Shown piece after piece: positions 38,037 to 40,790 of a stretch of 64,000 bases of DNA; positions within the stretch are counted from its first letter, which is position 1; every line of letters begins with the position of its first letter. The stretch spans positions 40,612,001 through 40,676,000 of the forward strand of contig OZ076409.1 in NCBI GenBank assembly GCA_964187785.1, given 5' to 3'. Under the pieces are notes generated by a model. That model ran no database searches, was not told where the DNA came from, and worked only from the letters and a program-made list of their open reading frames with translations. The stretch is from Amphiscolops sp. MND2022 (Eukaryota). The position numbers and the translations under genes were made by a program.

Positions 38037-40790
38037 TGTAGAAATTTTTGCTAGAGGGTCGGAGAGAAATCCCAATGGCTCGATTCTAACAGAAAGGTTT
38101 AGTTTGTAGTGAGTAAGTTTCGTCCACGTATCGCGTATTCTTTTCACAAAGGCTCTCCGGTGCTCAAGTTTCGACTCCAAAACACTATGGAAAAGTTACT
38201 TGCAATTAATACTCTAATTCAGGAATTATCTGGATAATACAAGTCGAAGATTTCCACAGTACGTAACTACTCAATCAAGCAATAACAATAGCACAGTAGG
38301 TGAATGAATTATATACAATAACTCAACAGAACTGTGCCCAAAATAACGATTCACTCAAAGATTTCCAAGTCCCGGACTTGTAACTTATTCGCTGCTCTCA
38401 CAAAGCAGTAAGTCAAAATCGATCTCGAGTAGGTTTCTTGCCCGCACGGCTCAACTTACTCTTAACTTCGTAATCGTTCTTCTGAGTCAATTCGGTCTCT
38501 TTTTCCCTCCCTGAGATATTTATTCATCAGCCGCATTTTTGTTGTACCGATGTCGCTCTTTTATTTGCATGCTTTTAACTTCATGTAGTTCCATTCCTTT
38601 TATGGCATGGCAGCTCCCTAGTTATGTTTCGGCCAGACATTCTTCGCCGCCAACGACAAATACTTCAACAAAGGTTGTACAAAGTTCACATTTCAATAAT
38701 AATTCAAGTCCACCAAGATATTTCCAACATCGAGACAATCGTTCAATGATCTTCAATTACATGGTTTACATGCTCTATATGCGTAAGGGGTACTTTTCCT
38801 TCCTTTTGGGCGCAATGCATCGCGAATCGTTCCACCTGATTGAAATGCATAAATTATCACTTAAAGACGCTGATTTACATGTTTTATCATTAGTTTCTTT
38901 ATATGTTCCGGGGTTGCATCTAAGATGACCTTGAGGTCCATCGGTGACCTTGAAGTTATTTGTCCTCATCTAGTGTTGCTACATGCCAATTTATATCGTC
39001 CTAGGGTCAATGGTTCCCGAGTTACATGATATGCGTATAGTTTGTTTACTTAAGGCGGCTACCCCCGCATGGGTTACAAATACGGTTTTGTTCACGTTAT
39101 AAATCGACTACATTCATCATTCCGGTTCGTTTGATATATTACAAGCCAAGGTCAAATGTCATTTATCGGTCGGGCCCGCGTGTCCGGTCCCGCGTGCCTT
39201 AAACAAACATTACTCCGCGCGTGGTGAACCAATCTATGTATCTTTCATGTATATTACTTAGGGTTACTATATGAACATATTGGGTAAGTTTCATGATCGT
39301 CGGGTCATCCGGTGGCTATTTACATAACATTCGGGGTTTATTTACTTAGGGTCCGTGCTCCTCCTACGCGCGTCATAGGGTTCCGAAAACATGCGCAAAG
39401 GGCTTAGTATCGTGTGGGCTATCAATTCTATATATAATACGACTTATTCCGTGCTTGGCCGATGAGTTCATAGGGGGGTCGACCTAGGTCACTTCCGGTG
39501 CTAATAGCCCGGGGCTGGGGGTCTCGGCTCGGTTCCGTTTTCATAGGCGTATGGCATAACAGCTCAATTATCCGTGTGCCAAATTTCAAGTCTCTACGAT
39601 AAGTAGTCTTTGAGAAAAACCTGACTGGGGGGGTTTTTCGATTTTATGACGATTGATTTTTCATGGTGTATCTTAGAATATTTTCCCTCGAAAGTGGGAC
39701 TTAGTAAAATTCGCTCTAAGTGATCAATTTTGACTCAGCCGATTCAAATTCTTCCATCGTTGACGTCACTCTTTAACTTGATGACTTTGACAACCGCTTG
39801 TTGTGTGTTCGTCATTTCTTCGTTTACTGGTATTTGTATACTCAAACATAATTGCAAACAACCACTCGTATTAACTTCAACCTCGCTGCTTAATTAGCTA
39901 TGGATAAATCCTTATACGATGATGTAGTTTTGTACTTAAGAGATGGGGCTTACCGCACAGGCAATTCCCGCAGTCGCTTCCTAGTCCGTCAGGCTGCGCA
40001 CCGGTACTCCCTTTATGGCCGCCGATTGCGACAAGGTTCGCTCATTGTGCTGCACGAGGGGGAGGCCTTTGATGTTCTGATGTCTTTTCATCGGAAGAAG
40101 AAGCATATCCGGGGGCCAGAGTTTTATGCAGCTGTAAGGCGGGAATATGCTGTGTCACCTCTTCAGCCTCTGTGTCAGGATGTCGTGCGGAACTGTGAAG
40201 AGTGTACCGGCACGTACACGCACTACCGGAATACCGGTCCTATGCAGCATCTGTCCATAATACAGCGAAAGAACGCATGTAAGAAAATTGGAATTCCATT
40301 TGTGAGGGACATTGGCCTGCATGGTGCCCCCGATATCGATCCCTCCAAATTCGCTCCCATTTCTATAGATATGGCCGGACCACGCAATTGCTTCTGCATT
40401 GTTATGTCTTACGTCTTCTCGGGGACTTGCGAGAACACTGCCGCGATTGAGGAATGGGTGAAAAAGATCCGGCGCGGGCCCCATAGTTCCCTTTATTCTA
40501 CCTTCGGTGCGGAGGCTCCCGAGTCTCTTGATGACGTCTCTTACTTAACCCAGACGGATGTTAAGATTATCGCTCGGGAGCTTGGCGTCAACTTCTACGA
40601 ATATTTTCCAGCGACTAGCAATCGATCGGCCCGTTGGGAGGTTTGCTCTGGTAACAAGAAAGGTCCCGAAAACGGTGGGTTTTATTTTGCGTGGACACGA
40701 AGGGACGGGAGAGGACATTCATTATTAGTACGGGGCCTAAAACCCATATCGACGTAATTAAGGTTAGCGCTCTTAATGATTTTTCTCACA
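38037..40790 (-). repeat. LTR copy 1 (3' LTR), inferred about 2.75 kb
   Basis: Left end fixed by the host junction and the PBS of the other copies. Right end inferred from TTTCTCACA (inverted match to TGTAGAAA) followed directly by a PPT. Confidence 0.65.
39900..40757 (+). CDS. Antisense ORF, 285 aa: integrase-type HHCC zinc finger plus OTU-like cysteine protease (copy 1)
   Basis: N-terminal YL.DG.Y...VR..A..Y.L...H.KKKH.RG...VRNCEEC; C-terminal GPRNCF..MSY..SG, DVKIIARELGVNFYEY and FYF...GHSLLV; AATAAA at 40820 and 40829. Confidence 0.75.
   Translation: MDKSLYDDVVLYLRDGAYRTGNSRSRFLVRQAAHRYSLYGRRLRQGSLIVLHEGEAFDVLMSFHRKKKHIRGPEFYAAVRREYAVSPLQPLCQDVVRNCEECTGTYTHYRNTGPMQHLSIIQRKNACKKIGIPFVRDIGLHGAPDIDPSKFAPISIDMAGPRNCFCIVMSYVFSGTCENTAAIEEWVKKIRRGPHSSLYSTFGAEAPESLDDVSYLTQTDVKIIARELGVNFYEYFPATSNRSARWEVCSGNKKGPENGGFYFAWTRRDGRGHSLLVRGLKPIST

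Follow-up and report, generated by a model that had tools for sequence, protein, structure and literature searches.

A Ty3/gypsy retrotransposon with a gene inside its LTR

We analyzed a 64,000-nucleotide stretch of the Amphiscolops sp. MND2022 genome (hereafter the window; GenBank assembly GCA_964187785.1, contig OZ076409.1, positions 40,612,001 to 40,676,000), in which an env-bearing Ty3/gypsy retrotransposon carries an open reading frame (ORF) of 285 amino acids, ORF285, inside its long terminal repeat (LTR). Starting at position 38037 of the window and ending at the equivalent of position 65029, the minus strand holds a tandem array of the form LTR-internal-LTR-internal-LTR, with a period of ~12.12 kb and a single pair of target site duplications (TSDs). 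Each unit contains an LTR, a primer binding site (PBS), gag, pol (protease, reverse transcriptase, RNase H, and integrase; PR-RT-RH-IN), an env-like gene, a 175-aa ORF, a polypurine tract (PPT), and an LTR. The unit is a young LTR retrotransposon with the hallmarks of Ty3/gypsy elements, namely TG...CA LTRs, a TSD, a tRNA PBS, a PPT, and the PR-RT-RH-IN order of pol. The PBS is an exact 18-nt match to the 3' end of the host tRNA-Asn(GTT) and lies 1 nt off the LTR. The LTRs of the array differ by 6 to 8 substitutions, and a frameshift near position 43700 that breaks the env-like gene is common to both units; the array may have arisen by unequal crossing-over or from an assembly that joined two alleles.

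The first-pass annotation of the window had described a very long LTR (~2.75 kb) that holds a whole gene and had predicted that the terminal LTR would end near position 65,030, followed by the TSD TTTTC. The present analysis bears out both statements. LTR 1 covers 2,754 bp, and since the element lies on the minus strand, 40790 is the 5' (PPT) end of the LTR and 38037 its 3' (PBS) end; the PPT AGAAGGGGAGAG (40802-40791) directly adjoins the LTR terminus TGTGAGAAA. When the host genome (1.07 Gb) was searched with the segment 39900-40860, the match to the third LTR, outside the window, stopped at the base equal to 40790. This LTR ends at G000:C1:40677029, the equivalent of window position 65,029, and is followed by TTTTC, as found at 38032-38036. 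Furthermore, four other close insertions with paired LTRs have the same two ends and their own 5-bp TSDs (AGTTT on C3, CACAG on C7, CCAAA on C2, and CCAAC on C10), as does a solo LTR on C11 (GTGTT). In none of the copies checked did the LTR end before 39900, which would have placed the ORF in the internal region. We resolved 16 paired-LTR elements, including the window array and leaving a rearranged locus at C5:59.5 Mb outside the count. An exact 5-bp TSD was found in 15 of them, with 4 of 5 bases matching in the last, and all 16 carried the gene or a broken copy of it, antisense, within the LTR, at the PPT end.

ORF285 is antisense to gag, pol, and env, an orientation that the first-pass annotation does not mention, and stops 33 nt short of the LTR edge. 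Its placement inside the LTR and this distance agree with the first-pass annotation, which had put the ORF entirely in U3; from its position (nt 34-891 from the PPT end), we infer that it indeed lies in U3. Protein-coding sequence in U3 or the LTR, duplicated at each replication, occurs in mouse mammary tumor virus (MMTV sag) and in HIV (nef); these are sense-strand genes of vertebrate retroviruses and encode unrelated proteins, whereas ORF285 is antisense.

ORF285 is a gene under purifying selection. An ATG-initiated ORF of at least 285 aa was found in 0 of 500 base-shuffled LTRs, the longest reaching 184 aa. Between subfamilies, dN ranged from 0.05 to 0.27 and dS from 0.34 to saturation, third codon positions being the most changed, and the ratio of nonsynonymous to synonymous divergence (dN/dS) was 0.07-0.17 wherever dS was measurable (0.07-0.12 among type B copies, defined below). 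Near-identical pairs gave a dN/dS of 0.31-0.47, which on 5 to 6 changes was not significant. dN was 0.19-0.22 in the C-terminal half versus 0.27-0.33 in the N-terminal half. Another ORF of the LTR, of 119 aa (38569-38928), was rejected as a gene, as it contains stops in 5 of 5 relatives.

Divergent versions of the gene have been exchanged between element lineages

Compared with the window element, elements C8 and C6 are about 92-99% identical in Gag, Pol, and Env (mostly 96-98%; Gag, 97%), whereas their LTR genes are only 36% identical to ORF285. Among nine elements of the window's family, each of the two gene types, A and B (36% identical), occurs with both gag/env lineages, which means that the gene was exchanged as a cassette. 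Approximately unbiased tests rejected congruence both ways (P = 2e-6 in one direction; P = 2e-76 for gag and 8e-43 for env in the other), on 10, 9, and 8 rows, with P values that are descriptive, since the groups were named after the trees had been inspected. The dS of gag between the window element and C8 is 0.12, too short a divergence to account for a 64% difference between the proteins; what was exchanged must therefore have been old alleles. The exchanged block runs on into the 3' internal region, which fits a U3 position of the gene. In addition, the U5-side part of the LTR (38037-38780) assorts independently: it is 72-79% identical to that of C8 and C6, which belong to the same gag/env lineage, and 92-96% identical to that of C10, C13, and C2, which belong to the other. 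Together, these comparisons demonstrate that deeply divergent gene types have been exchanged between element lineages. Elevated gag dN/dS values in comparisons that involve C6 (0.52-0.56) look like a slicing artifact and were set aside.

ORF285 is predicted to combine an integrase-type module with an OTU fold

An AlphaFold2 model of the protein, built from a 69-sequence alignment, reached a pLDDT of 93.9 and a pTM of 0.77. An earlier model from 13 close sequences was poor (pLDDT of 45), and its Foldseek list, rich in OTU proteins, was not significant. With the good model, Foldseek returned five matches at E ≤ 0.001, all of them OTU proteins. VIA-align, in which unrelated rows begin at Z 5.4, placed OTU deubiquitinases at ranks 1 to 10, the best being OTUD3 (4bou; Z 11.0, root mean square deviation of 3.4 Å over 124 aligned residues). 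Model residues 2-103 matched the N termini of retroviral and retrotransposon integrases instead, with Z 8.4 for Ty3 integrase (7q5b), 8.2 for that of prototype foamy virus (PFV), and 6.1 for that of murine leukemia virus (MLV).

Sequence profiles point the same way for the N-terminal module, which has the YPYY motif (partly degenerate in the window copy) and the H2C2 domain. The Pfam family Integrase_H2C2 matched the window ORF at E 0.074; the match was above the cut-off in four family members (P0036, P0054, and P0055 among them) and marginally under it in others. A search with a profile of the family collected 84 proteins, among them clear H2C2 proteins and the sea urchin OTU protein P0093 (E 4.5e-4), which itself matches Pfam OTU at E 8e-11. 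The integrase DDE core and the GPY/F module are absent: the protein has only 285 aa, no Pfam rve match was obtained, and the model consists of two domains only.

Within the OTU-fold domain, the alignment retains the candidate catalytic residue Cys164 in 30 of 31 rows and the candidate catalytic residue His273 in 21 of 25. Other conserved patches are a G-N/H-K-G stretch and Trp246. The two-domain architecture and the Cys/His dyad are predicted with high confidence. Searches of PDB sequences with the protein and with two profiles gave nothing meaningful, the ESM Atlas returned no usable match for either the Gypsy-borne form or the BEL-borne form described below, and BFVD matches were weak and mixed.

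Related genes occur in a second Gypsy family and in BEL/Pao elements

A second Gypsy family (C1:76866949-76885172, C9:6764975-6783074, and C12:36524188-36542291) has 3.48-kb LTRs that contain a 35%-identical version of the gene. Its Gag is 28-34% identical to that of the window element, and it again has a tRNA-Asn PBS and an env-like gene; the sense ORF that precedes its PPT has 186 aa and is unrelated.

Searching the genome for Pfam OTU matches further uncovered multicopy ORFs with the same architecture as the Gypsy-borne gene. These belong to BEL/Pao elements (DUF5641 integrase, LTRs of 245-322 bp), where the related gene lies antisense between pol and the 3' LTR. It was convergent with the BEL integrase in all 14 loci examined, and there were 106 matches in the genome. 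The BEL-borne forms score 27.2-27.5 bits on Pfam PF02338 (cut-off, 23.3) and keep the full OTU triad (H-V-D). hhalign joined them to the Gypsy-borne family at 98.8% (E 1e-16, 232 columns). Cys164 and His273 are invariant across the Gypsy- and BEL-borne forms and align with the Cys and His of the Pfam-positive BEL forms.

The Gypsy-type gene has more than 100 matches in the genome, and the whole gene family has more than 200; these sit in repeats and call for caution in annotation, the more so as the Gypsy-borne form escapes Pfam. Distant members of the family, the P0139 group and P0018 (25-34% identical), have no close match in the host genome; the Gypsy-type family is therefore probably present in further genomes. 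We also noted long proteins in which the N-terminal module occurs two or three times (P0072, P0083, P0078, and P0085), two of which contain THAP and Tyr-deacylase domains, and an open frame of 2,244 aa (L125; G000:C13:25.89 Mb) that includes a canonical OTU domain and may belong to a Helitron.

Solo LTRs and transcription signals

The first-pass annotation had proposed that solo LTRs spread the gene through the genome. We surveyed 24 single-hit loci, which were picked by similarity to the ORF and are not a census: 11 were TSD-flanked solo LTRs, 5 adjoined internal sequence, and 8 could be assigned to neither group. The ORF was intact in 3 of the 11 solo LTRs and broken in 8. The proposal thus stands as far as DNA is concerned, the solo LTRs carrying the gene; spread of a working gene is weakly supported, given the 8 broken copies and the lack of a poly(A) hexamer for the gene in the LTR. 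Indeed, past the stop codon, the ORF strand shows no AATAAA or ATTAAA before the LTR ends. The first AATAAA on this strand lies 30 nt outside the LTR, in a short inverted repeat beside the PPT. The inverted repeat was found in 8 of 8 type A or B junctions (with one mismatch in one of them) and was absent from the second Gypsy family. The AATAAA was present in 5 of 9 junctions, so the hexamer at 40820 holds only in part as a conserved poly(A) signal of the gene, and solo LTRs and 5' LTRs would need flanking DNA to end the message. Folding of the hairpin region by the PPT was no better than that of shuffled sequences (z = -0.45). In the noncoding part of the LTR, candidate TATA boxes and poly(A) hexamers were not uniformly conserved, with the exception of a minus-strand AATAAA at 39342 (9 of 9), and the limits of U3, R, and U5 are accordingly not fixed. 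The target of selection seems to be the lineage of elements.

A candidate deubiquitinase and its possible origin

We judge, at slightly better than even odds, that the antisense, selected, and exchangeable LTR gene of this env-bearing Ty3/gypsy element encodes a likely deubiquitinase, made of an integrase module and an OTU fold, that would shield the element from host control based on ubiquitin. ORF285 would be driven by an antisense promoter in the noncoding LTR. The integrase-derived module would tether the protein to the element's DNA ends, to LTR chromatin, or to the integrase complex, where the OTU domain would strip off ubiquitin or a ubiquitin-like modifier, so that element proteins escape the proteasome or silencing marks are removed. 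The kept dyad, the sharing of the gene across superfamilies, and the maintenance of divergent alleles fit such a counter-defense role.

As for its source, the gene may descend from a transposase of the Ginger1 type (YPYY-H2C2-DDE-GPY/F-OTU) whose catalytic middle was lost. With the N-terminal module, the score is 40.8 bits for a stand-alone Ginger/GIN-like integrase (P0096) and less than 3 bits for the element's own Pol. The gene would at first have been an antisense neighbor of a short 3' LTR, the arrangement seen in the BEL/Pao elements of this genome, and would have entered U3 once plus-strand priming had moved to a PPT on the far side of the gene, hence the long LTR. We advance only tentatively, and with distinctly less confidence than the deubiquitinase function, the broader scenario that Ty3/gypsy and BEL/Pao elements share an undescribed integrase-tethered deubiquitinase from a disarmed Ginger1 transposase and that the env-bearing lineage moved the gene into U3, keeping and trading divergent versions of it as counter-defense alleles against ubiquitin-dependent restriction.

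Several observations weigh against these proposals. The Gypsy-borne form is without the usual G-D-G-N-C loop and without the Asp/Asn two residues past the His, so the enzyme may be weak or dead. A Pfam OTU (PF02338) search gave no match for ORF285, the OTU half alone scores just 2-4 bits between the Gypsy- and BEL-borne forms, most of the sequence signal being in the N-terminal module, and type B is without the last zinc Cys of that module. An arms race would explain the exchange of divergent alleles, but so would plain, old recombination between subfamilies that coexisted. Since P0096 was itself picked by the same profile, it is the domain order that suggests a Ginger1 origin. None of 8,000 scored candidates proved to be a parent combining the two modules with a DDE core, which is weak evidence. 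In a genome search for a Ginger-like parent, in which 131 of 23,740 candidates were scored, all matches returned began at query residue 55 or beyond and were lost among ordinary integrases. Finally, we saw no relic of an older PPT and none of transposon ends.

The loss of the third catalytic residue makes a pseudo-enzyme possible, in which the OTU fold would bind ubiquitin or a host factor without cleavage, as a decoy or adaptor. All Gypsy-borne forms have lost both this residue and the canonical Cys loop, which the BEL-borne forms keep, and the G-N/H-K-G stretch and Trp246 could be conserved for binding. However, at an overall identity of 25-36%, the columns of Cys164 and His273 rank with the most conserved, and OTU enzymes with the dyad alone exist (PMC3968130, in the passages available), so that we regard a pure binding protein as rather unlikely. 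Less probable still is a cofactor of integration or a copy-number control, in which the N-terminal module would help, direct, or prevent integration by binding the integrase or the DNA ends of the element, and the OTU domain would be secondary. The fold match to the N termini of the Ty3, PFV, and MLV integrases would agree with such a role, and the extension domain of PFV integrase is described as contacting viral DNA (PMC3738965). Yet the C-terminal half is constrained at least as much as the N-terminal half, as the dN values above indicate, and 36%-identical versions of the gene serve 97%-identical integrases, which argues against tight co-adaptation.

We assign a low probability, a little below that of the integration cofactor, to an active protease with another substrate, such as SUMO, UFM1, another ubiquitin-like tag, or an element protein. 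The altered Cys loop would suit this proposal; viral OTU proteases are reported to cleave ISG15 and polyproteins (PMC3968130), and Ginger1 to carry OTU or Ulp1 interchangeably (PMC2836005). On the other hand, the fold neighbors of the model are ubiquitin and ISG15 enzymes, and Pol has its own aspartic protease. Least probable, and improbable in our view, is a gene that serves the host and travels with solo LTRs, or else a recently arrived nested transposon, a passenger useless to the element. The 3 intact solo copies and the more than 100 genome matches could be read in this way. But the other solo copies are broken, the protein is conserved despite saturation at synonymous sites, the position of the gene is fixed in two Gypsy families, and no terminal inverted repeats (TIRs) surround the ORF.

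Comparison with known systems

Ginger1 transposases combine YPYY, H2C2, DDE, GPY/F, and a C-terminal OTU protease (Bao et al. 2010, PMC2836005), and the same text knows OTU domains from Ginger1 and Helitrons. The order of the end domains is alike in the LTR gene. It differs in having neither DDE core, GPY/F, nor TIRs and in being a separate antisense gene on LTR retrotransposons; inverted repeats like those of Ginger1, which has TIRs of 40-270 bp and a 4-bp TSD, were not seen in 38000-41500.

Conserved antisense ORFs at the 3' end are also known from plant and fungal Ty3/gypsy elements as aORF-3R (Grande gene23, RIRE2, Retand, PvRetro13, and Boty), whose function is given as not known and for which an own promoter and an accessory role were proposed (PMC7264820, as far as its available text goes). 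Those ORFs sit between pol and the 3' LTR, exactly the layout of the BEL/Pao relatives in this genome, whereas ORF285 lies inside the LTR, in an animal, and has a recognizable enzyme fold.

Viral OTU proteases (nairovirus vOTU, PLP2 of equine arteritis virus, and PRO of turnip yellow mosaic virus [TYMV]) have the OTU fold and the Cys/His dyad that are predicted for ORF285. TYMV PRO, equally without the third residue and the usual loop or complete oxyanion hole, is described as an active deubiquitinase that counters degradation of the viral polymerase (PMC3968130). ORF285 differs from them in its fusion to an integrase N-terminal module and in being encoded by a retrotransposon, and it is known here from sequence and model.

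The "ancient errantiviruses," env-carrying Ty3/gypsy elements of invertebrates (PMC13524379), share gag-pol-env, LTRs, a tRNA PBS, and recent copies with the window element, whose env-like gene may likewise be F-type-like and which has two further ORFs and belongs with elements whose LTRs reach 2.7-3.5 kb; neither "OTU" nor "antisense" occurs in the main text of that paper. Env is said there to recombine rarely, whereas the accessory block described here has recombined. Rotifer retroelements likewise have one enzymatic cargo common to unrelated lineages, but it is a GDSL esterase or a DEDDy exonuclease, without OTU, and is termed ORF3 and not LTR internal (PMC5408684, in the passages available). 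Among the titles, abstracts, and passages covered (Repbase, subscription journals, figures, and most spreadsheets of PMC13524379 being outside this scope), we found no OTU gene in an LTR retrotransposon, and "OTU" is absent from PMC6338049 and PMC12440569.

Accessory genes of retrotransposons are thus known already, but most extra ORFs are without a known function. The clear enzyme fold of ORF285, together with the exchange pattern, makes its role testable, and with it the older idea (raised in PMC2836005) that transposition is under the control of ubiquitin pathways. If our reading is correct, animal retrotransposons, like RNA viruses, would bear deubiquitinases against their host, a gene common to superfamilies would be traded as a cassette, and an LTR would have grown by taking in a neighboring gene.

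Other features of the element and of the window

Positions are collected in Table 1. The env-like gene matched Baculo_F at E 3.6e-4, under the cut-off. The 175-aa ORF is basic and of low complexity and is a mosaic between subfamilies; its relatives are 47-64% identical.

Table 1. Features of the array, its LTR gene, and related elements (window positions unless a contig is named)
Feature	Position	Strand	Remarks
TSD TTTTC	38032..38036	+	Partner 3' of terminal LTR at window-equivalent 65,030-65,034
LTR 1, 2,754 bp	38037..40790	-	Array's 3' LTR in element orientation; repeat and genome comparison
Approximate exchanged block	39550..41050	.	48-65% identity to C8/C6; env 91-99% identical
ORF285	39900..40757	+	Wholly inside LTR 1; antisense to element; purifying selection
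Residues 1-103, predicted YPYY-like integrase N-terminal extension and H2C2-type zinc-binding domain	39900..40208	+	Pfam and VIA-align
Residues 145-281, predicted OTU-fold domain	40332..40742	+	Candidate catalytic Cys164 (40389-40391) and His273 (40716-40718)
Polypurine tract	40791..40802	-	Adjoins LTR 1
Short conserved inverted repeat by PPT	40808..40825	.	Outside LTR; arm gives AATAAA on ORF strand in this copy
175-aa sense accessory ORF	40927..41454	-	No Pfam match; open in relatives; dN/dS 0.11-0.40
Env-like gene, 232-aa and 512-aa ORFs	42163..44396	-	Weak Baculo_F match; frameshift near 43700
pol, PR-RT-RNaseH-integrase	44858..49120	-	Ty3/gypsy order
gag	49039..50061	-	CCHC knuckle
PBS	50137..50154	-	18-nt tRNA-Asn(GTT) match
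LTR 2	50156..52910	-	Common to both tandem units
Second copy of ORF285	52020..52877	+	In LTR 2
Second internal region	52911..62273	-	175-aa ORF, env, pol, gag, PBS
LTR 3	62274..64000, end G000:C1:40677029	-	Cut by window; third intact ORF copy inside
BEL/Pao elements with related gene	G000:C1:86422744-86429734, C3:92748662-92755718, C6:50329539-50338195, C5:12733508-12740402		L171-L180

Elsewhere in the window, the minus strand at 14946-20848 holds a broken Gypsy element of greater age, whose 195-bp LTRs are 97.9% identical, and long palindromes resembling miniature inverted-repeat transposable elements lie at 228-464, 12983-13402, 21322-21483, and 24029-24242. The tRNA-Asn pattern had 381 forward matches in the genome; 95 of the first 100 fell in a long tandem array of tRNA-Asn-like sequences that starts at G000:C7:47.64 Mb, with a spacing in multiples of ~198 bp.

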